Shown here piece by piece: positions 1-36,060 of a stretch of 64,000 bases of DNA (positions are counted from its first letter, which is position 1; every line of letters begins with the position of its first letter). The stretch spans positions 29,444 to 93,443 of the forward strand of contig JAISXH010000044.1 in the NCBI GenBank assembly GCA_031270825.1, in the 5' to 3' direction. A program made the translations under genes and the position numbers. The DNA is from Bifidobacteriaceae bacterium. GTDB lineage: Bacteria; Actinomycetota; Actinomycetes; Actinomycetales; WQXJ01. Below the pieces are notes generated by a model. It saw only the letters and a program-made list of their open reading frames with translations, made no database searches and was not told the DNA's origin.

Positions 1-719
1 ATGTTCGGACCGAAAAGGTAGCGCCGCGAGTTCAGGCGGAACTCGTAATCGGCCAGCCGTCCCTCGAAGACCGCCTTGGCGGCCTTGGCCGCAGCCGGAT
101 TGGTCGCGAAGATCTGCTTGTAGGCGCCGTTGTTGATGTCGTCAAAGATCTGCTGGTTGAGCAGGTCGATCTCCTGGCGCAGCGGCTCCGGGTAGAGATC
201 CGGCGCGTCCGGCCGGTGGTAGGGCGCCCAAGCCGTCTCCCATTCGTAGCTGAGCAGGTGGTAGTTGTTCGTGACGACCAAACCCGTCTTGGTGTCGATC
301 ACCGTGGGCGAGGTGCCCCGGCCTTTGAAGTCCGGGTCGGTGCGCTGGTAGAAATCATTCAGGCGAATGGTGCCGAAGTCTTCGCGCAGCGTGTTGCCGT
401 GTTCTGCGATCAGCCAGCCGTCATCGTCGCGGCCGGTCAGCAATGCGAACGGCACCACTTCGGTCAGACCCAGCAGTCGCAGCACGATCTGCTGGCGGCG
501 GTTCCACCCGCATCCGGGGTTACCGGCCAGGACGTAACGGCCGGGCTCGACCGGGAACTGCGAATCGGGTCCGCCGAAGTGGGCGGTGAACCAGTTCCGT
601 TGACGCCTGAAGGCGCCGTCCTCGGTTTGCTCAGTGGTGGTCTCAGGGAACTTGGACGGATCCACCTTCAGGGGTTTGCCCTTCAGGTCCTGCTCTAGAT
701 CGGCGGTCAGTGTGGCCAT
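1..719 (-). CDS. Xi-class glutathione transferase / glutathionyl-hydroquinone reductase family protein (YqjG/ECM4-like). Only the N-terminal ~239 codons are in the window; the C-terminus lies left of it.
   Basis: Absent from the ORF track because it runs off the left edge. My minus-strand translation from ATG 719 (GAGGAG 7 nt upstream) reads MATLTADLEQDL..GAFRRQRNWFTAHFGG..PGRYVLAGNPGCGWNRRQQIVLRLLGL..NNGAYKQIFATNPAAAKAAKAVFEGRLADYEFRLNSRRYLFGPN. By eye it is collinear with E. coli YqjG (FRNWLTADG..RYHLYVSLACPWAHRTLIMRKLKGL..NNGVYKAGFA..LGQHRYLTGNQ). Confidence 0.8.
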   Translation of the reverse strand, partial: MATLTADLEQDLKGKPLKVDPSKFPETTTEQTEDGAFRRQRNWFTAHFGGPDSQFPVEPGRYVLAGNPGCGWNRRQQIVLRLLGLTEVVPFALLTGRDDDGWLIAEHGNTLREDFGTIRLNDFYQRTDPDFKGRGTSPTVIDTKTGLVVTNNYHLLSYEWETAWAPYHRPDAPDLYPEPLRQEIDLLNQQIFDDINNGAYKQIFATNPAAAKAAKAVFEGRLADYEFRLNSRRYLFGPN

Positions 720-763
720 GATGGCGCTCTCCTCAGTTGAGTGTCGGTGGTTGGGTTGTTCGG

Positions 764-2944
764 TCAGATTGATGTGGTCAATTGGTCCGCGGACCGGCCC
801 GCGCGTCCGTCTGTCGGTCTTGGCGGTGCGGCGAGGGCGGCCGCCGCCTGGAACTTGTCTTCGGCTTGATGGAGTTGCAGACGGGGAAAGTCCCTCAGGT
901 CCGCCCGATAGGCGTCGAAGATGGCCGCCAGGGCGGATTCAGCCGAGCCCGCCTGGTTGCCGGACAGGAAACGGCGTCCTTTGAGGCGGGCATTGAGCCA
1001 GTCGATTCTGGCCCAGAACAATCGCCAAATGGCCAGCGCGGCGCCCGGTTCTGGTTGGTCCAACAACCGCTCCAGCGAGCCGAGCAGATCCGCTTCCAAG
1101 GTCTCCAGCAGAGTGGGCGCCTGGCCCACGGGGCCGCCGCCAACGCCACTGACGCTGGTCGACCGGGCAGATTGAACCGAGGGCAAACCGCTCGGTTTGA
1201 CGCCATCGGGCCGGCCTGCCTGGGCGGACGCCTCAGGTGGAGCTTCGGCGCTGGTCGCCTGGTCGAGTTCGGCCGCAGGCCGATTGCCGGTGGGCCGACT
1301 GGCGTCTTCGCGCCGCCGGAGTTGGTGGACGCGCTCGGCCGCCCGCTCCCAGCGGGCGCGGGCCCCCGCGACGTCTGGCCCCGGCCAGTCGGCCGGATAG
1401 TCCAGGACGGGCACGGACGGATCGCGCGCCGGGAGGGGCCGATGCAGGTCCTTAGGCGGGCGCAGCCACTCGGAACGAGGGTCCGCCAGGGCCTCTGTCG
1501 GCGGCAACGGGCCGAACGGTTCGGCGTAGACCCCATCGCGATCCGGGGCCAGGCCGATATCTCGCAACTCGGATTCAGTCAGCGCCGCCAGGCCCAAGAC
1601 CAACCGGGCTTGGTGCCACAGGCGCGGCCAATCGGCCACCACCCCGAAGGCCGGGAATCCGGCGCGCCAGCTCAAGTCGTAGGAGGCCAGAAGGCTGAAC
1701 AGGTAAATGTCGGCGCGGTTTGGTCGCTCCTGGCCCAAGAAAGGACCGTCTTGCGCTAGTTGGAGATTCAAGTGGTCCAAGCGGGCGAAGAACACCCGTG
1801 CGGCGGCCGCGCCCGCATCCGCGTCCAGGGACCACAACGCGGTCACGGCCCCATTGCCGAGATCCGCCAAGAGTCGCCCGATCTGCCTATCTTCCGCCGA
1901 TGCCGTCGAACGCTCGCCGTTTTCGGTGGCGCTTGGTCCGGCCTCGCCAGGGCGTCGGATCTGTTTGGGAGGAGCCAAGACGCCTTCGGCCGTCAGACGG
2001 GAGATGATGCGCTCGGCCCGAGCCACGGCATCGGCGGGCGGGTTTTCGGGAATGAAGGCCCCGGACGCGTCGACGGCGCCGGGGGGACGCGCGGGCCAGA
2101 GCGCCCGGTCGGGTTCGCGCCAGAAAGGCGGATGGCTGGCCGGTCCGGGGCGTCGATCCACGCGGATGACCTCGGATTCCGGCAACGGATCGGGGACGTG
2201 GTAGGTGAAGGTCGCCAGACGCTCGTCGTAAGCCGAGACGAAAGCGGTTTCGCGTTCCGGGCGACGGCTGAAGCCGTGGGCGTAGTAGAGCCGGTGAGCG
2301 GCGGACATCTGTGGGCTGGAGTTGATCTGGATGACGCGGAAGCCGTAGGCGCGGGCGAGCGCGATGGCGTGGTTGGTCAGCGCCGCGCCCAGACCCAGGC
2401 CACGTCCGGCCGGGCCCACTGCCAGCACCGAAAAGGTGAAGTGCTCTGGCGTCCAGAATTCCACCCGGGGGGTGAGCACAATCCCGAGCAGGCTGTCCGT
2501 TTGGTCGACCGCCAACCAGATGTGCCAGGTCTCGGCCCGCTGACCCAGCCGCCTCAGGCCTTGCTCATATCCCTCGGACACCCAGCAACCGGTGGTGAAG
2601 GCTGCGACCAGGAGATCCTCGGCCGGGGCGTATTCGTCGGGACGGGCTTCGCGGATGGTCTGGCCGCCGGGCAGGTGCACCGCCCGCGCCCAAGCGGGCA
2701 AAGTGTCTCGGGTCTGTGCGGGCGGGTGGGCGACTGGTGACTGGGCGACTGGTCGATAGGCGACGGCGCTGCGGGCGACTGCCGGCCGGGCGGCCGCAGG
2801 CGGCGACGCCGCCCTTGAGATCGCCTCGGCGCCGGACGGCGCCACGGCGGAGGCAGACCGGTCGGGCGGCGCTCCGGCAGGGGCCGTGGGGCTGGGCGAG
2901 GAGTGGATGGGGGATGCGTTAGAGGCCAAGGTCGGTTGATTCAT
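764..2944 (-). CDS. Multidomain protein: Ala/Pro/Ser-rich N-terminus, a GNAT N-acetyltransferase domain, and two tandem Xi-GST C-terminal-like helical domains.
   Basis: ORF track, 726 aa. Residues ~100-250 are a GNAT core with motif A R-G-L-G-L-G (LAVGPAGRGLGLGAALTNHAIALARAYGF..LYYAHGF). Residues ~370-470 and ~610-700 each resemble the GST-Xi C-domain (see first finding). It lies 44 nt upstream of, and on the same strand as, the GST gene at 1..719. The start is uncertain because the RBS is weak and the N-terminus is low-complexity. Confidence 0.7.
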   Translation of the reverse strand: MNQPTLASNASPIHSSPSPTAPAGAPPDRSASAVAPSGAEAISRAASPPAAARPAVARSAVAYRPVAQSPVAHPPAQTRDTLPAWARAVHLPGGQTIREARPDEYAPAEDLLVAAFTTGCWVSEGYEQGLRRLGQRAETWHIWLAVDQTDSLLGIVLTPRVEFWTPEHFTFSVLAVGPAGRGLGLGAALTNHAIALARAYGFRVIQINSSPQMSAAHRLYYAHGFSRRPERETAFVSAYDERLATFTYHVPDPLPESEVIRVDRRPGPASHPPFWREPDRALWPARPPGAVDASGAFIPENPPADAVARAERIISRLTAEGVLAPPKQIRRPGEAGPSATENGERSTASAEDRQIGRLLADLGNGAVTALWSLDADAGAAAARVFFARLDHLNLQLAQDGPFLGQERPNRADIYLFSLLASYDLSWRAGFPAFGVVADWPRLWHQARLVLGLAALTESELRDIGLAPDRDGVYAEPFGPLPPTEALADPRSEWLRPPKDLHRPLPARDPSVPVLDYPADWPGPDVAGARARWERAAERVHQLRRREDASRPTGNRPAAELDQATSAEAPPEASAQAGRPDGVKPSGLPSVQSARSTSVSGVGGGPVGQAPTLLETLEADLLGSLERLLDQPEPGAALAIWRLFWARIDWLNARLKGRRFLSGNQAGSAESALAAIFDAYRADLRDFPRLQLHQAEDKFQAAAALAAPPRPTDGRAGRSADQLTTSI

Positions 2945-3137
2945 GGCTTTTCGGCTTTCTCTTGGCTGACCTCGGGCGGGAACCGCCCGGGCGTATTCAA
3001 GAAACAGGGGGAATCTGCGGACTAGCGAGGGCAGCGCGCCAGTTGGCGGCGCCGCCAGGAGCGCATTCGCGCGCTCGACATTCGCTTCGCCCGGTTGGCC
3101 ACCTGAAGATGTTCACAGGGCCGAGCGGCCGGGTCAA

Positions 3138-3251
3138 CAAATGTAAAGGACTCCCCCGCGCCGCCGTTCCAACCGGTGGCATGGGCGCGCCAGTCGGCGC
3201 CGGAACCCTGGCTTCTGGCTCTTGAGCAGGTCGATCAGCAAATGTAAAGGA
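3138..3251. promoter_or_regulatory. Two identical 13-nt boxes CAAATGTAAAGGA (3138..3150 and 3239..3251) in the 516-bp divergent intergenic region.
   Basis: Read directly: gggtCAaCAAATGTAAAGGActcc and cgatCAgCAAATGTAAAGGAactac, 101 bp apart. They are AT-rich islands in GC-rich DNA. Function unknown. Confidence 0.3.
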
Positions 3252-3460
3252 ACTACGGGCCGCAGCCGGGCGGCTGGCGGCCGAGCCGTGTAGGGTGTCC
3301 CCGTGAGCGAAACGCGGTCTATGGGCCCGGGCGCGCGAATGCGCGGGCGAATGCCTTCCCGCGCGCCGCAGTCCTAGACCGCAGGTGATTGCAAGCAGAG
3401 GTTCTCCGCAAAGGCGCGCGTGCCAATCCCGCTAAACCAGTTTCGCAAAGGACCTTTGAC

Positions 3461-4750
3461 ATGCACCTTTCCACCCGATGTATTCACGGTTTTGGACCCG
3501 CGCCGGATTCGACCGGCGCCATTTCGACCCCTATCTACCAGACCGCCACCTTCGCCCATCCCGCAGTCGGCCAGTCGACCGGTTTCGACTACACCCGCAC
3601 CGCCAATCCCACCCGATCAGCTCTTGAGTCGACAATGGCGTCGCTCGAATCCGGCGCCGCGGCTTTCGGCTTCGCTTCTGGGATGGCCGCGATCTCAACC
3701 GTGGCGGAGCTTTTCGCGCCCGGCGACCATGTCGTGGTCAGCGCCGACGTCTATGGCGGCACGCACCGCCTGTTCGCCGACGTGTCCGCGAAGAACGGGA
3801 TCAGCTTCACCCGCGCGGGCACCGACCGACAGATCGCGGCCGGGGTCACTGCGCGCACCAAGGCGGTCTTCATCGAGACGCCGACCAATCCGATGATGCA
3901 GGTGGTCGACATCGTGGCGGCGGCCCAGGCCGCCCATGCGGCCGGAGCGCTGCTGATCGTGGACAACACTTTCTTGACGCCCTACTTCCAGCGGCCGCTT
4001 GAGTTGGGAGCGGACATCGTGGTCCACTCCGCGACCAAGTATCTGGCCGGCCACAACGACACGTTGGCCGGCGTCGTGGTGGTGCGCGATGCCGACCTCG
4101 GCGAACGCATTCGCGCCTTACGTTGCACTTTGGGCGGGACTTTGGCGCCATTCGACTCCTGGCTGGTGCAACGAGGCGTCAAGACCTTGGCGGTCCGCCT
4201 CGAGCGCCAAAGCGCCAATGCCGCGATTCTGGCCGCCTGGCTGCGCGACCATCCGGCGGTGCGAGAGGTCTACTATCCGGGCCTGCCGGATCATCCTGGT
4301 TTCGCGGTCAGCCAGCGCCAGGCCAGCGGACACGGCGCCATGATCTCCTTCAGGGTGGCGAACCAGGCCCACGCCCACCGGGTCCTCGCGAGCGTCAAGA
4401 TCATCCAATTCGCTGAATCGCTGGGCGGAACGGAATCGCTGATGACCTACCCGTTGACGCAGACGCATGCCGAAGTGCCGGAATCACAGCGCCTCGAATT
4501 GGGGTTGGATGAGACCTTGCTGCGCTTGTCCGTGGGCTTGGAGGACGTTCGCGACCTGGTGGCAGACCTGGATCAGGCGCTGGGCGAAGGCGTTGAGGCC
4601 AGTTCCCCGGCGCGGCGACACGGCCTGCGGCCGGCTCGGCCCTCGGCAGAGGCTAACGTGGTTCGGGCGGCCAGACCTGTCCTGGCGCAAACGGGACCAA
4701 TTCAGGGGGAAAGTGGGAGACGGCATCGTGCGACGGTCGGTCTTCGATGA
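3461..4750 (+). CDS. Cys/Met-metabolism PLP enzyme, cystathionine gamma-synthase-like (MetB/MetI type; a beta/gamma-lyase activity cannot be excluded).
   Basis: ORF 3389..4750, with the start moved to ATG 3461 (MHLSTRCIHG; AAGGA about 11 nt upstream). Motifs: TANPTR, IVDNTF, PLP-lysine HSATKYLAGHNDTLAGVVVV, FAESLGGTESL. By eye it is closest to B. subtilis MetI. A ~55-aa C-terminal tail overlaps the next gene by 23 nt. Confidence 0.85.
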   Translation: MHLSTRCIHGFGPAPDSTGAISTPIYQTATFAHPAVGQSTGFDYTRTANPTRSALESTMASLESGAAAFGFASGMAAISTVAELFAPGDHVVVSADVYGGTHRLFADVSAKNGISFTRAGTDRQIAAGVTARTKAVFIETPTNPMMQVVDIVAAAQAAHAAGALLIVDNTFLTPYFQRPLELGADIVVHSATKYLAGHNDTLAGVVVVRDADLGERIRALRCTLGGTLAPFDSWLVQRGVKTLAVRLERQSANAAILAAWLRDHPAVREVYYPGLPDHPGFAVSQRQASGHGAMISFRVANQAHAHRVLASVKIIQFAESLGGTESLMTYPLTQTHAEVPESQRLELGLDETLLRLSVGLEDVRDLVADLDQALGEGVEASSPARRHGLRPARPSAEANVVRAARPVLAQTGPIQGESGRRHRATVGLR

Positions 4751-5891
4751 GGTGATAAACCGAAGCGGGACCGGCGCGCTGATGCTGGCGCGGGAACGCT
4801 ATGGCGTGCCGGCGGATGCGCTGCCGCTGTGGGTCGCGGACATGGCTTTCAGAACGCCCCCGACGGTCACGGAGGCGCTGGCGGAACGGGTGCGCCACGG
4901 CATTTTCGGCTATTCGCTGCCGACCCCGGCCTACTACGACGCGCTGGCTGGCTGGTTCGAGCGCCGGCACGCCTGGGAACTTGATCCGCGCACAGCCGTC
5001 TTGACCCGTGGCGTGGTGCATGGGCTGTACTTGACGTTGGAGGCGTTGACGGCGCCGGGAGCGGGCGTGATCATCCAGCCGCCGGTGTACCCGCCCTTCT
5101 TTGAGGTGGTGCGTGACACCGGCCGGCGCGTGCTGGCGAACCCGCTGGTGGAGGATGCGGGCCGGTATGTGATCGACTTCGACCATTTTGAGGCCTTGGC
5201 CCGGGACGCCTCGGCGTTCATTTTGTGCTCGCCGCACAACCCGGTCGGCCGGGTCTGGACGCGCTCCGAATTGTCGCGACTGGCCGAGATTTGTCTGCGT
5301 CACGATGTCTGGATCATTTCTGACGAGGTGCATCAGGACTTCGTCTATCCCGGGGGCCGGCATGTCGTGACCGCCACCTTGGACCCGGCCGTGGCGGCCC
5401 GAACGGTGACTTGCACGGCGCCGTCGAAGACGTTCAATCTGGCCGGTTTGCAGTTGGCGAATCTTCTGGTGTCTGATCCCGCCGCTCGCGCCCGGTTGAC
5501 GGCCACCTATGGCGCGCAGGGGCTCAGCCAGCAGCCCGTCGTGGGTTTGCTGGCTTGTCAGGCCGCCTATGGCGGCGGGGCGGACGCTTGGGTCGACGAG
5601 TTGGTGGCCTACCTGGCCGGGAACCTGGCGTTGATTGAGGCTGGCGTGGCCGATTTGCCCGGGCTGCGTTTCACGCGCCCGGAGGGGACCTACTTGGCTT
5701 GGCTGGATTTGCGCGGCTTGGATCTGGAGCCGGCCCCCTTGCGCCGCCTGGTGTTGGAAGGCGCGCGTTTGTGGCTGTCGGATGGCCCCACCTTCGGCGC
5801 TGAGGGCGCCGGCTTCCAACGGCTCAACGCGGCCGTGCCGCGTTCGGTTATTGAGTCCGCTTTGGAGCGCCTGGCCGCCGCCGTCCCCTAG
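4728..5891 (+). CDS. MalY/PatB/AecD-type C-S lyase (cystathionine beta-lyase, class I/II aminotransferase fold).
   Basis: ORF 4467..5891, with the start moved to in-frame GTG 4728 (VRRSVFDEVINRSGTGA; purine-rich GGGGGAAAGTGGGAG upstream). Motifs: LWVADMAF, CSPHNPVGRVW, PLP-lysine APSKTFNLAGL. Confidence 0.85.
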   Translation: MRRSVFDEVINRSGTGALMLARERYGVPADALPLWVADMAFRTPPTVTEALAERVRHGIFGYSLPTPAYYDALAGWFERRHAWELDPRTAVLTRGVVHGLYLTLEALTAPGAGVIIQPPVYPPFFEVVRDTGRRVLANPLVEDAGRYVIDFDHFEALARDASAFILCSPHNPVGRVWTRSELSRLAEICLRHDVWIISDEVHQDFVYPGGRHVVTATLDPAVAARTVTCTAPSKTFNLAGLQLANLLVSDPAARARLTATYGAQGLSQQPVVGLLACQAAYGGGADAWVDELVAYLAGNLALIEAGVADLPGLRFTRPEGTYLAWLDLRGLDLEPAPLRRLVLEGARLWLSDGPTFGAEGAGFQRLNAAVPRSVIESALERLAAAVP

Positions 5892-6062: not shown

Positions 6063-7400
6063 TCAGGAGTGGAGGAAGTCACCCACCACTGGGCCGAGCT
6101 GGGCGAACTCGATCAGGAAGCCGTCATGGCCGTAATCCGAGTGGACCAGGTGGACGTCGCCGGCGCCGGGAATCAGGTCCGCCAGTTCGCCAGACTCGCG
6201 CGGCAGGTAGAGCCGGTCCGAGTCGACCGCCACCACCAGGGCTCGGGCGCTGATCGAAGCCAGCGCGGCAGCCACCCCGCCGCGATCCCGTCCCACATCA
6301 TGGGAGCACAGCGCCTCAGTCAAGACGATGTAGGAGTTGGCGTCGAAGCGCAGGGCCAATTTGGCGGCGTGGTGCTCCAGGTAAGACGCGACGGCGTAAC
6401 GGCCGCCGCCGCCCAGCGGCTCCTCGCCCGCCTGCGCCTCGGCGCCGAAGCGGCCCTCGAGTTCGACCGCCGAACGGTAGGTGGTGTGGGCGATCTGCCG
6501 GGCGATTCCCAAGCCCACATGGGGCCCTTGGCCGTCTGGCTGGCCGTAGTAGTCGCCACCTAGAAAGTAGGGGTCGTTGCGGATGGCGCACAACTGCGCG
6601 TGCGCCCAGGCGATCTGGTCGGCGGTGGACTTGGCCGTGGTCGCGACCGGTGCGATTCGGGCCACCCGATCAGGCGCCATCACGGCCCATTCGAGCACCC
6701 GCATTCCTCCCATCGACCCCCCGATCACGAGGGCGAATTGGCGGATGCCCAGAAAATCGGCCAAGGCCAGCTCCGCCCGAACCTGGTCGCGGACGGTGAT
6801 GTACGCGAAGCTCGAGCCGTAGCGGCGTGGCCGGACGGCATCGGGCACGCTGGTGGAAACCTCCCCGGAACCCGGCGCGACGGGCTGACCTGGGGTTACG
6901 GTCCCACCTGGCGTAACGGGCCGGCCTGGCGCGACGGGCTGACCTGGCCGGCCCGAAGGCTCCGGCCCGGCCAGCCAACTGGGCTCTGACAACGAGGCCG
7001 GCCCGGTGGTGCCCTGACACCCCCCCAGGACGTTCGGGGCCAGGACGAAATATTCGTCGGTGTCGACGGGGGCGCCCGGCCCGATCAGATCGGTCCACCA
7101 ACCGGCGGTCGGATGGCCCGGCCCGGCCGGTCCGCGAATATGCGAATCGCCGGTCAGGGCGTGCAGGACCAACACGGCGTTGTCGCCGGCGGCGTTGAGC
7201 TTGCCCCAGGTCTCGTAGGCGATCGTGACGTCGACGAGCCCACCGCGTTCGGGTCGGAAGGGGCCCACCCGGTGGAACTGGCGATGGCCCACCGGGTCCG
7301 ATTCGAGCCATGCTCCCGTGGCGGGCACCAACTGGCCCGGCTCGGGGGCGCGGCCCTCGAAACCGGGTCCAGGGCCCATGCCCGCCACGGTCATGGTCAC
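6063..7400 (-). CDS. metX: Homoserine O-acetyltransferase.
   Basis: ORF track. Motifs: DVTIAYETWGKLN, VLHALTGDSH, nucleophile elbow GGSMGGM, HSDYGHDGFL. GTG 7400 overlaps the metY stop (GTGA); ATG 7394 is an alternative start. Carries a ~55-aa Pro-rich insertion. Confidence 0.9.
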   Translation of the reverse strand: MTMTVAGMGPGPGFEGRAPEPGQLVPATGAWLESDPVGHRQFHRVGPFRPERGGLVDVTIAYETWGKLNAAGDNAVLVLHALTGDSHIRGPAGPGHPTAGWWTDLIGPGAPVDTDEYFVLAPNVLGGCQGTTGPASLSEPSWLAGPEPSGRPGQPVAPGRPVTPGGTVTPGQPVAPGSGEVSTSVPDAVRPRRYGSSFAYITVRDQVRAELALADFLGIRQFALVIGGSMGGMRVLEWAVMAPDRVARIAPVATTAKSTADQIAWAHAQLCAIRNDPYFLGGDYYGQPDGQGPHVGLGIARQIAHTTYRSAVELEGRFGAEAQAGEEPLGGGGRYAVASYLEHHAAKLALRFDANSYIVLTEALCSHDVGRDRGGVAAALASISARALVVAVDSDRLYLPRESGELADLIPGAGDVHLVHSDYGHDGFLIEFAQLGPVVGDFLHS

Positions 7401-8749
7401 GGCGCCGCGGGGGAGGTCGAACTGGTGTCAGCGGCCACGGCCTGATGGGCGGCGGCGAAGCCCAACTCCAAATCGGCCAGGATGTCGTCGATTCCCTCTA
7501 AGCCGACGGCCAGGCGGACCAGGCCGGGGGTGACTGCCGAAAGGGCTTGTTCTTCGGGGCTGAGCTGCGAATGCGTGGTCGAGGCGGGATGGATGACCAA
7601 TGAGCGCACGTCGCCGATGTTGGCGACATTCGAGTGCAGCTTCAGGGCCGAGACGAAAGCCTGTCCAGCTTCGGCGCCGCCGTCGATCTCGAAGGCGAGG
7701 ACCGCTCCGGGGCCGAGCGGCGCGTACTTCTGGGCCAGCTCGTGGTACGGGCTCGACTCGAGGCCGGCGTAATGGACGGTCAGCACGTCATCGCGGGCTT
7801 CGAGCCACTTGGCGACCTGCCGGGCGTTGGCGATGTGGCGTTCGATCCGCAGCGATAGGGTCTCGATCCCCTGCGCCAGCAGGAAGGCGTTGAAGGGCGA
7901 GATGGCCGGCCCGATGTCGCGCAGCAACTGCGCCCGGACCTTCAGGATGTAGGACAGGTTGACGCCGAAGACGCCATTCGGGCCGAAGACATCGCCGAAG
8001 ACCAGGCCGTTGTAGGCCGGATCGGGGGTGGTGAAGCCAGGGAACTTGCCGGCGGCGGCGTAGTCGAAACGGCCGGCGTCGACAATCGCGCCGCCAATCG
8101 AGTTGCCGTGCCCTCCGAGGTACTTGGTGGCGGAATGGATGACCACGTCGGCGCCCCATTCGATGGGCCTGATCAAGTAGGGCGTGGCGACCGTGTTGTC
8201 GACCAACAGCGGCAGGCCGGCGTCATGGGCGACACCAGCCACTCCGGCGATGTCGAGGATGTCGGTCTTCGGGTTGGGGATGGTTTCGCCGAAGAGCAAC
8301 TTGGTGTTGGGCTGGATGGCCCGGCGCCACTCGTCAAGGTCGGCTGGGTCGTCCACAAAAGTGACCGTGATGCCGAAGCGCGGCAGGGTGTTGTTGAACA
8401 GCGAGTAGGTGCCGCCGTAAAGCGAGGCGGCGGAGACTATGTGATCGCCGGCGCCGGCGATGTTGAGGATCGCAAGGGTGGTGGCGCTGGCGCCCGAAGC
8501 GGTCAGCAGCCCGCCGACCCCGCCTTCCAGTTCGGCGATCCGATTCTCGACCACCTCTTGGGTGGGGTTGGTCAAGCGGGTGTAGATGGGTCCGAGTTCT
8601 TGCAGCGCGAACCGCGCCGCGGCGGTCTTGGCGGAAGGGAAGACGTAGGACGTGGTTTGGAAGATCGGCAGCGCGCGAGCGCCGGTGCCGGGGTCTGGTT
8701 GCTGCCCCGCGTGGATCTGTTTGGTTTCGAAGGACCATTGCTGGCTCAT
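7397..8749 (-). CDS. metY: O-acetylhomoserine sulfhydrylase (aminocarboxypropyltransferase).
   Basis: ORF 7397..8854, with the start moved to ATG 8749 (MSQQWSFETKQIHAG; GGAGAA upstream). PLP motif HSATKYLGGHG; typical length of about 450 aa. Confidence 0.9.
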   Translation of the reverse strand: MSQQWSFETKQIHAGQQPDPGTGARALPIFQTTSYVFPSAKTAAARFALQELGPIYTRLTNPTQEVVENRIAELEGGVGGLLTASGASATTLAILNIAGAGDHIVSAASLYGGTYSLFNNTLPRFGITVTFVDDPADLDEWRRAIQPNTKLLFGETIPNPKTDILDIAGVAGVAHDAGLPLLVDNTVATPYLIRPIEWGADVVIHSATKYLGGHGNSIGGAIVDAGRFDYAAAGKFPGFTTPDPAYNGLVFGDVFGPNGVFGVNLSYILKVRAQLLRDIGPAISPFNAFLLAQGIETLSLRIERHIANARQVAKWLEARDDVLTVHYAGLESSPYHELAQKYAPLGPGAVLAFEIDGGAEAGQAFVSALKLHSNVANIGDVRSLVIHPASTTHSQLSPEEQALSAVTPGLVRLAVGLEGIDDILADLELGFAAAHQAVAADTSSTSPAAP

Positions 8750-9019
8750 GGGTGTTCTCCTGTCTTGGCCTGGTTGCCGGTCGCTGGCGGCTGGCGCCCG
8801 GGCCTTGAAGTGCGTGGTTGTTTCGGATTGAGCTTGGGTTGAAGGACCGCGCACGGCCGGGAGAGTAATGGGCGCATCACAACTGCAATCAGTGGTTCAG
8901 TGGATGGGCGCCCGGCGCCGAGTCAAGGCAGGTCGAACGTGCGCTGAGACTTCAGCGACACATTCGACGGGTTTGCATGCCGGCCAGAATAGGCCGGTGG
9001 CCAACCTTTGGAAAGTCCT

Positions 9020-35895: not shown

Positions 35896-36060
35896 TGCAA
35901 TACTTCCCTTCACCGGCAGGTACGTGCCGGACGATCCGTTGTGAAAGGCGCCGCCCGAACCTTGCCTAGCCCGGTTGGCACATGCTCATTCGTTGAACAC
36001 GCCTCCTATAGTGCCACATCGAATTGCCCAAAACGTGTGCGTTCAGTCCGTCTCGCGCCT
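35896..36060 (-). promoter_or_regulatory. msiK 5' leader and promoter region; candidate location of the actinobacterial msiK RNA motif.
   Basis: Hairpin CCGGCA-N6-TGCCGG (35913..35930) abuts the SD. A second stem is possible (GTGGCAC..GTGCCA, about 35975..36016). The msiK motif is known to lie in msiK 5' UTRs, but I cannot recall its consensus to confirm a match. Confidence 0.3.

Follow-up and report, generated by a model that had tools for sequence, protein, structure and literature searches.

Xi-class glutathione transferases (GSTs) remove a thiol from an S-conjugate by a Cys-based mechanism (PMC5063366, PMC6815410) and dimerise via their helical domain (PMC5063366). The motif C-P-W-A has been described as strictly conserved in the glutathionyl-hydroquinone reductases (GHRs), and in ECM4 the gamma-glutamyl group of glutathione (GSH) is bound by a Glu-Ser pair (PMC5063366). 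The mycothiol-dependent enzyme MstX of C. glutamicum also has C-P-W-A, and the triple change of P-W-A to G-F-S abolished its activity (PMC6815410). A second described system is the salvage of modified cysteine in Bacillus subtilis, which starts with acetylation of S-(2-succino)cysteine by the GNAT acetyltransferase ScmL; the S-substituent is then taken off by a second enzyme, and an M20 hydrolase frees cysteine. ScmP (YxeP), an N-acetylcysteine deacetylase, carries out this last step (PMC12757645). Sibling clusters process other S-alkylcysteines, and the middle cleavage enzyme differs and is unrelated between clusters (PMC12757645). Here we describe a locus at one end of a 64,000-nucleotide stretch of a Bifidobacteriaceae bacterium genome (assembly GCA_031270825.1, contig JAISXH010000044.1, positions 29,444 to 93,443; "the window" hereafter). 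In this locus, a GNAT is fused to two Cys-less modules that resemble the C-terminal helical domain of Xi-class GSTs, and the fusion gene is followed by a gene for a Xi-like GST.

The 726-aa protein is a genuine conserved fusion. Confidence scores for its structural elements are predicted local distance difference test values (pLDDT) from AlphaFold2 (AF2) models. The features of the gene pair are as follows.

764..2944, minus strand: fusion open reading frame, 726 aa (stop codon 766-764), a GNAT plus two Cys-less GST C-terminal-like modules
2708..2944, minus strand: N-terminal extension, residues 1-79, Ala/Pro-rich, a gap in the alignment for all homologues, pLDDT <50
2189..2707, minus strand: GNAT domain, residues 80-252 (Pfam, Foldseek, conservation)
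1985..2086, minus strand: beta-hairpin plus helix, residues ~287-320 (AF2 secondary structure, pLDDT 85-96)
1445..1897, minus strand: GST_C-like module 1, residues ~350-500 (hhalign, Foldseek)
1115..1444, minus strand: linker, residues 501-610 (pLDDT and DSSP)
830..1114, minus strand: GST_C-like module 2, residues ~611-705 (hhalign), an internal duplicate of module 1
720..763, minus strand: intergenic gap of 44 nt between the fusion gene and the GST gene, with a GAGGAG ribosome-binding site at 734-729, 9 nt before the ATG at 719-717
1..719, minus strand: Xi-like GST of the type that we call CGW after its active-site motif, first 239 codons, running off the window edge (translation; PDB Xi-GST matches)

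An earlier note on this DNA, made from the letters alone, had placed the two genes at these coordinates, 44 nt apart, and had read the larger product as a clear GNAT core followed by two Xi-type GST C-terminal-like segments, each without a catalytic Cys or a thioredoxin-like N-domain. All of its coordinates and quoted peptides were found in the sequence, and the architecture was borne out by Pfam for the GNAT and by hhalign and Foldseek for the modules. The note had also taken the architecture to be uncharacterised, and NCBIfam holds no curated family model for it; a literature search for GNAT-GST_C fusions found nothing relevant. An assembly artefact or pseudogene as the source of the fusion was ruled out, with intact frames and an architecture that is kept in more than 15 independent contigs.

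The public product of the gene (P0001, 638 aa) is 100% identical to the window protein, with a start at GTG/Val89 (2680-2944 region). The ATG at 2944 is the better start, because a start at Val89 removes a stretch (LPAWARAV) that is conserved in homologues. Residues 1-79 are not conserved among homologues and are predicted to be disordered (alignment; AF2). The linker contains one long helix (residues 525-549) and a disordered low-complexity stretch (residues 553-605) according to AF2 pLDDT and DSSP, and profile comparison of about residues 495-612 found no similarity to the GST family (E 0.75). The MetX encoded in the window (6063-7400) holds a Pro/Gly-rich low-complexity insertion of ~55 aa that splits its family match in two, and the fusion has similar low-complexity inserts at residues 1-79 and 553-605. 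Together these inserts suggest a genome-wide tendency to low-complexity insertions.

The GNAT domain was recognised by Pfam Acetyltransf_1 (PF00583) at residues 134-225 (E 5.9e-8, 33.4 bits against a cut-off of 20.7), and the same family was matched in 15 of the 16 members of the fusion family. The acetyl-CoA motif R181-G-L-G-L-G186 (nt 2387-2404) is nearly invariant among homologues. Further features are a conserved Cys120 in AAFTTGCWV (nt 2585-2587) and SSPQMSAAHRLYY at residues 209-221. The AF2 model of this region has pLDDT values mostly >80, and the top 50 Foldseek matches of the full-length model are all GNATs (prob 1.0), led by the free amino-acid N-alpha-acetyltransferases YncA, PAT/BAR and ArsN. 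A sequence search of the PDB with the whole fusion gave weak GNAT matches alone, and its C-terminal half had no match. The NCBIfam model for MshD matched the GNAT weakly (E 0.058, not significant), and no NCBIfam model was identified for the stand-alone GNAT. The fusion GNAT represents a dedicated subtype that is small and unnamed.

The Cys of the TTGCW motif was seen only in GNATs with a Cys-less GST-like partner, whether fused or adjacent, among the proteins compared (L019, L020, L022, L026, L008 and P0162). The stand-alone GNAT of the Bifidobacterium thermophilum type, which has no Cys-less partner, has STNGPM at the Cys120 position, and the P0162-type GNAT, whose nearly complete GST part has Asn in place of the Cys, has ESRFW. 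The TTGCW Cys might supply the thiol lost by the dead GST domain, forming a composite active site.

The two C-terminal modules were examined by family scans, profile comparison and structure prediction, and the profile comparison and fold search support both. Among the Pfam families of the GST C-terminal domain (PF13410/PF00043), GST_C_2 matches the window fusion alone with E 7.6e-4 (20 bits, under the 24.9-bit cut-off), and it matches 14 of 16 family members scanned singly, with a best E of 2.9e-10. Comparison by hhalign with the family of the neighbouring CGW-type GST gave probability 99.3 and E 6e-21 over 143 columns, tail included, for module 1 (residues 345-500), and probability 97.6 and E 3e-12 for module 2 (residues 600-705). 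The modules match each other with probability 99.5 and E 6e-23, and they are duplicates of each other. In a comparison with three sequences per side and GSTs of both types from the same loci, module 1 aligned to CGW-type GSTs with E 3.8e-16 over 147 columns and to canonical Xi-class GSTs with E 3.7e-10 over 101 columns. Module 1 is closer to the CGW type, and therefore the modules are paralogues of the neighbour's helical domain. The earlier note had taken them for generic thiol-conjugate binders; this part of its reading gives way to one in which they are dead paralogues of the neighbouring GST's own helical domain.

As full-length Foldseek matches are dominated by GNATs, a separate AF2 model was built for residues 250-726 (pLDDT 76, predicted template modelling score 0.76). 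It has the elements alpha4-alpha8 of the GST helical domain twice. Its top 27 PDB matches in Foldseek are all Xi-class GSTs (prob >=0.99, E 0.011-0.38, 122-167 columns), including 4pts, 6gzf, PcpF, YqjG, 3m1g, PcGHR1, TvGSTX and PtGHR1. Module 1 carries the Xi-type tail, GL.P..DG.Y.EPFGPLP...W. Within the Xi tyrosine triad, the alpha4 Tyr is variable in module 1 (Val in the window protein), the alpha6' Tyr is replaced by Trp, and the tail aromatic is kept. Neither module is preceded by a catalytic Cys or a complete thioredoxin domain (alignment, AF2). The modules cannot be Xi enzymes, because neither the thioredoxin domain nor the Cys is present and two of the three triad tyrosines are missing. 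Ahead of module 1, residues ~287-320 form a confident beta-hairpin and helix in the AF2 model (GAVDASGAFIPE...AVARAERIISRL). They align to beta3-beta4 of the one-module forms described below only within a longer alignment; alone, they gave E 0.27 against beta3-beta4 and E 0.36 against beta1-alpha1, neither significant. This segment may be a remnant of a thioredoxin-like domain (beta3-beta4-alpha3).

The gene that follows the fusion on the same strand had been called a genuine Xi-class GST in the earlier note, and homology to 4pts, 3m1g and YqjG supports a Xi-like GST. The window fragment matches the PDB Xi-GSTs 4pts (2.5e-31), YqjG (3r3e, 3.6e-19) and 3m1g. Orthologues have about 364 aa, and the full-length one from locus L001 matches 4pts over both domains (9.6e-48, residues 50-353). 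The motif C-G-W-N-R-R lies at 512-495, with the codon of the catalytic-position Cys at 512-510. The note was right that this motif is non-canonical, as it differs from C-P-W-A; it is not an oddity of a single gene. Among the best 120 homologues, C-G-W-x-R-R is present in 118/118 with a readable motif; the variable position is occupied by N (51 homologues), A (39), S (13), C (8) or one of G, Y and F (7). The motif therefore marks a large clade and is no quirk of one gene. The clade, to whose profile the window GST belongs with E 1e-125, is uncharacterised. We identified no Pfam or NCBIfam model for the window fragment and no NCBIfam model for the full-length orthologue. Hosts include Tessaracoccus, Brooklawnia, Propionibacterium, Actinomycetaceae, Bifidobacterium and one metagenome-assembled genome (MAG) labelled Pseudomonas. 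A 58% paralogue of the window GST (P0094) is recorded from a Bifidobacteriaceae bacterium MAG.

In the CGW protein, the first two positions of the Xi triad are aligned with tyrosines. The first (NNGAYK) lies inside the window; the other (GYR), like a possible third one (G.Y), comes from the full-length orthologue only, whose tail aligns poorly. At the positions aligned with the Glu-Ser pair of ECM4, the CGW protein has Asn-Tyr, and the actinobacterial structures have Asp-Phe or Asp-Tyr. The CGW clade probably uses a thiol other than GSH. Such a thiol fits hosts such as Bifidobacterium bifidum, because this species lacks GSH synthesis (PMC4656816).

These G-site differences (residues from PMC5063366) bear on one alternative view of the locus, in which an N-acetylated low-molecular-weight thiol is produced or recycled by the GNAT, for instance N-acetylcysteine or the product of an MshD-like last step, and the CGW-type GST uses that thiol instead of glutathione or mycothiol. 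The lack of GSH synthesis in B. bifidum and the MshD match would fit such a cofactor supply. However, that match is not significant, no thiol-biosynthesis genes were seen in any locus, and the association with importers and peptidases (below) is left unexplained. We consider this alternative very unlikely.

Relatives of the fusion show how the partners may have come together. A word-indexed search found 15 relatives, among them MAGs of Bifidobacteriaceae or Propionibacteriaceae. An exhaustive profile search with the C-terminal part of the fusion, covering 1.84 billion representatives, yielded about 10 representatives with two modules, together with fragments, and one-module forms (at least 13 representatives, 339-527 aa) that have the same GNAT subtype and one GST-like region. 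This region aligns to nearly the whole CGW-type GST (probability 100, E 1e-52) and keeps the thioredoxin domain, with a deletion in the beta2-alpha2 loop and other residues at the Cys position. The least decayed form (P0162) consists of a GNAT and a CGW-like GST that is almost complete, with A-N-D-W-S-R-L in place of G-C-G-W-N-R-R (Cys to Asn). One-module proteins occur in cultured Bifidobacterium psychraerophilum (KFI83226.1), Changpingibacter yushuensis (WP_188043555.1) and Tessaracoccus lacteus (WP_281145794.1), where they are annotated merely as "GNAT family N-acetyltransferase".

A genome scan with a 5-sequence GNAT alignment, using one genome per species, found 21 loci. In B. erythrocebi, B. 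amazonense, B. biavatii and B. miconis, a separate GNAT gene is directly followed by a separate gene for a Cys-less GST-like protein, and these proteins match the one-module profile at 1e-71 to 1e-76. The host families of the whole series are Bifidobacteriaceae, Actinomycetaceae and Propionibacteriaceae. The window protein stands at the end of a series that runs from split through fused to truncated-plus-duplicated forms. The occurrence of the same partners in separate, fused and duplicated form is a classic signature of proteins that act together. One Propioniciclava sp. MAG (AMR_MDS_5714) holds both fused forms: its two-module fusion (L012) adjoins a fragmentary CGW-type GST (profile positions 73-138 only), and its one-module fusion (L024) adjoins an intact one.

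The earlier note had asked whether the two genes of the window stay together in related genomes, and they do. We considered 25 distinct loci with flanking sequence long enough to judge; in 21 of them, a Cys-intact CGW-type GST is encoded within 10 kb of the GNAT gene, and it is usually adjacent. In the other four, a degraded copy is present in L012 and none in L018, L020 and L025. The tight order of fusion and GST seen in the window recurs in L001, L010 and L005. A GNAT, a Cys-less GST-like partner and a Cys-containing CGW-type GST form a recurring trio. In the complete genome of T. lacteus, the order is amidohydrolase, CGW-type GST, fusion, two permeases, ATPase and substrate-binding protein. 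There, a 34-nt gap with a ribosome-binding site precedes the fusion, and the fusion stop overlaps the next start as ATGA; the genes therefore form an operon.

This linkage bears on the idea that the GST-like modules merely oligomerise or solubilise the protein. The GNAT substrate would then be unrelated (a protein, an antibiotic or a polyamine), and the adjacent CGW-type GST would reflect shared regulation or ancestry. Non-catalytic GST-like domains do serve assembly elsewhere, for example in the eukaryotic multi-tRNA-synthetase complex and in SspA. Consistent with a scaffold, two of the three Xi triad Tyr positions are not conserved in module 1, and the PDB profile search of the GNAT gave generic matches only. 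Against it, the GNAT subtype and the GST subfamily that are paired stay the same whether the form is split, fused or duplicated, and the nearby live GST in 21/25 loci, across three families, is typical of proteins working together. A pure scaffold is thus an improbable explanation.

The neighbours of the trio in related loci provide clues to function. ATP-binding cassette (ABC) importers are present, with substrate-binding proteins of the SBP_bac_5 (peptide-type), SBP_bac_3 (amino-acid-type) or NMT1 type. An S10 serine carboxypeptidase, for which we identified no NCBIfam model, is encoded in at least 8 related loci. Other neighbours are a Xaa-Pro dipeptidase-like amidohydrolase, a cysteine synthase/CBS-like enzyme, rhodanese, a luciferase-like monooxygenase, M20 hydrolases and pyridoxal phosphate (PLP) enzymes of Cys/Met metabolism. 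For the M20 enzyme of B. thermophilum (L008), the best PDB match by far is B. subtilis YxeP/ScmP (9.3e-77; the next is 1e-41), and an M20 enzyme is also present in L009. Neither a ScmK monooxygenase nor a 2SL lyase was found adjacent to the GNAT gene in the eight loci with Pfam gene tables; among these, L005 alone has a Bac_luciferase gene, about 4 kb from the GNAT gene.

The B. thermophilum locus (L008, 2570-17042) encodes a Cys/Met PLP enzyme, ABC genes, a 181-aa GNAT, an S10 peptidase, a CGW-type GST, two SBP_bac_3 proteins, a second CGW-type GST, the YxeP-like M20 enzyme, MetY, a canonical-type Xi GST (motif C-P-I-A-Q-R) and MetE. It thus has two live CGW-type paralogues and no pseudo-GST.

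Two functions that share the same GNAT chemistry have to be weighed against this context. In the first, the locus serves detoxification, in analogy to animal NAT8 and the mycothiol Mca route: thiol conjugates of electrophiles are processed by the GST, and the Cys S-conjugates that result are N-acetylated by the GNAT to mercapturic acids for export. The earlier note had put forward such an N-acetylation, as in mercapturate formation, and as a reaction it is plausible. The acetylation step would be identical to that of a salvage pathway, the amino-acid N-alpha-acetyltransferases nearest in Foldseek include detoxifying enzymes (PAT/BAR, ArsN, YncA), and the thiol peroxidase Bcp is encoded nearby. 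However, the recurrent neighbours are importers (SBP_bac_5, SBP_bac_3, NMT1), peptidases, a deacetylase and enzymes of Cys/Met biosynthesis, with no efflux pump among them in the related loci, and a deacetylase in the same cluster would reverse mercapturate formation. Detoxification therefore seems unlikely to us. The importers, the peptidases and the ScmP-like deacetylase are the reason why the context of the related loci points to cysteine salvage rather than to mercapturate-style export.

We have high confidence in the structural and evolutionary part of our interpretation, namely the architecture, the origin of the modules and the evolutionary series. For function, we tentatively suggest, with confidence somewhat short of even, that the trio is a cysteine-salvage module for imported S-substituted cysteine or thiol-conjugate peptides, in which substrates are acetylated, cleaved and deacetylated and the dead modules bind or dock. 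The first step would be N-acetylation by the GNAT, at the amino group of an S-substituted cysteine or of a similar small conjugate. The active-site Cys of the CGW-type GST would then break the bond to sulfur, as Xi enzymes do with thiol-hydroquinone adducts. Unlike the reaction of ScmK, this would need no oxygen, and for that reason it would suit anaerobes. An M20 enzyme or amidohydrolase would release cysteine, feeding the adjacent Cys/Met enzymes. The dead GST modules may hold the conjugate, or they may dock the GNAT onto the live GST via the helical-domain interface used in Xi dimers; two tandem helical domains could mimic a Xi dimer within one chain. The most specific version of cysteine salvage is one that needs no oxygen in anaerobic Actinobacteria, with the CGW-type GST replacing the Bacillus monooxygenase or lyase in a complex with a GNAT that is joined to a dead GST paralogue. 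We regard it as rather doubtful in all of its parts together.

Several observations weigh against the interpretation given here. The AF2 models were built on shallow alignments (14-16 sequences), and the Foldseek E-values of the C-terminal part are modest (0.01-0.4). Docking or formation of a pseudo-dimer is a suggestion drawn from the literature on Xi dimers. NCBIfam and PDB profile searches with the GNAT returned generic GNAT matches only, with no specific tie to ScmL/SnaA. The CGW-type GST also occurs without the GNAT, for example in Brooklawnia cerclae, and so exists independently of the trio. Finally, tblastn found no homologues of the M20, S10, amidohydrolase or peptide-binding proteins in the 64-kb window, although the genes past the GST lie outside it.

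The window does contain genes of sulfur metabolism next to the fusion, divergently transcribed or farther along, as follows.

2945..3388, no strand: divergent intergenic region between the fusion operon (minus strand) and the MetB/C-like gene (plus strand), from sequence
3389-4750, plus strand: cystathionine gamma-synthase/lyase-family PLP enzyme (best Cys/Met PLP family match 4e-136)
about 4743-5891, plus strand: PatB-family C-S lyase (TIGR04350, 425 bits against a cut-off of 340)
6063-7400, minus strand: MetX, homoserine O-acetyltransferase (NF001209, 406 bits against a cut-off of 331)
7397-8854, minus strand: MetY, O-acetylhomoserine/O-acetylserine sulfhydrylase (NF005872, 735 bits against a cut-off of 703)

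A gene for Bcp is also present near the fusion. The sulfur-gene neighbourhood that the earlier note had described (a MetB-like enzyme, PatB, MetX, MetY and Bcp) is thus real, with the first of these assigned to the MetB/C family. A homologue of the PALP partner was searched for in the window by tblastn and was not found. The PatB family match starts at residue 93 of a long open reading frame (4467-5891, plus strand). Therefore, the true start is probably at ~4743, abutting the stop of the MetB/C-like gene (4750). This arrangement suggests that the two genes may be translationally coupled.

The GC-rich divergent intergenic region contains two direct AT-rich copies of an element (3123-3150 and 3224-3251, 101 bp apart) with an exact 13-nt core, CAAATGTAAAGGA, at 3138-3150 and 3239-3251; none of 100 shuffles reached 3 matches. 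The 13-mer CAAATGTAAAGGA was not found in related loci L001-L009. It is a possible operator for a sulfur regulator. Near the fusion and GST genes, Rfam identified no riboswitch or leader, and neither a consensus promoter nor a convincing terminator was found. The sole Rfam match in the window is an msiK RNA (RF01747) at 35898-35956 on the minus strand (69.5 bits against a gathering score of 33).

GNATs, Xi-type GSTs and salvage by acetylation, cleavage and deacetylation are already known. For the GNAT subtype, its obligatory pairing with a pseudo-GST, the two-module architecture and the CGW clade, we found no description in the literature search and no curated family model. Bifidobacteria and their relatives are generally unable to assimilate sulfate, many need reduced organic sulfur, and its supply in the gut is poorly understood (PMC4656816). 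A large uncharacterised CGWxRR clade tied to a dedicated acetyltransferase offers a concrete pathway idea for the oxygen-free recovery of cysteine from modified cysteine. The series is also a clean natural case of an enzyme domain turning into a pseudoenzyme partner, with separate, fused and duplicated stages all in living species. Its cultured hosts include B. psychraerophilum, T. lacteus, Changpingibacter yushuensis and B. erythrocebi. If the function is unrelated to sulfur salvage, a rare domain architecture of modest interest remains.

The locus can be compared with four kinds of known system. In mercapturate formation (animal NAT8) and in the route of the mycothiol S-conjugate amidase Mca, N-acetylated cysteine S-conjugates arise downstream of a thiol transferase, and the chemistry that we propose is alike. 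However, NAT8 and Mca are unrelated in sequence and architecture, and the present setting is one of import and catabolism instead of export. Non-catalytic GST-like assembly domains occur in the eukaryotic proteins MRS, EPRS, AIMP2, AIMP3 and eEF1B-gamma and in bacterial SspA. These share with the fusion a GST fold without catalysis that is attached to, or partners, another enzyme. They differ in having neither a GNAT fusion nor a Xi-class origin, and an assembly role for the window modules is conjectural.

Compared with Xi-class GSTs and GHRs (YqjG, PcpF, ECM4 and PcGHR1; MstX, NCgl1216), the neighbouring GST is alike in sequence, in the catalytic-position Cys and in two aligned triad tyrosines, and differs in having C-G-W-x-R-R for C-P-W-A and Asn-Tyr for Glu-Ser. 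The fusion modules share the helical domain and the tail with these enzymes, but have no thioredoxin domain and no Cys, and two tyrosines of the triad are absent.

There is also a parallel in gene content with the scm/yxe, ytn and yha clusters of B. subtilis. We take the parts of these clusters to be a GNAT (ScmL/SnaA), a monooxygenase (ScmK) or lyase (2SL), and an M20 enzyme (ScmP/YxeP, YtnL or YhaA). Homologues of the M20 enzyme and importer were not found in the 64-kb window. The related loci share with the clusters the GNAT, a YxeP/ScmP-like M20 enzyme, a SBP_bac_3 ABC importer and, in one case, a luciferase-like monooxygenase, and the sulfur amino-acid setting is common to both. They differ at the position next to the GNAT, where a CGW-type GST and a dead GST-like partner are present in place of ScmK or 2SL.

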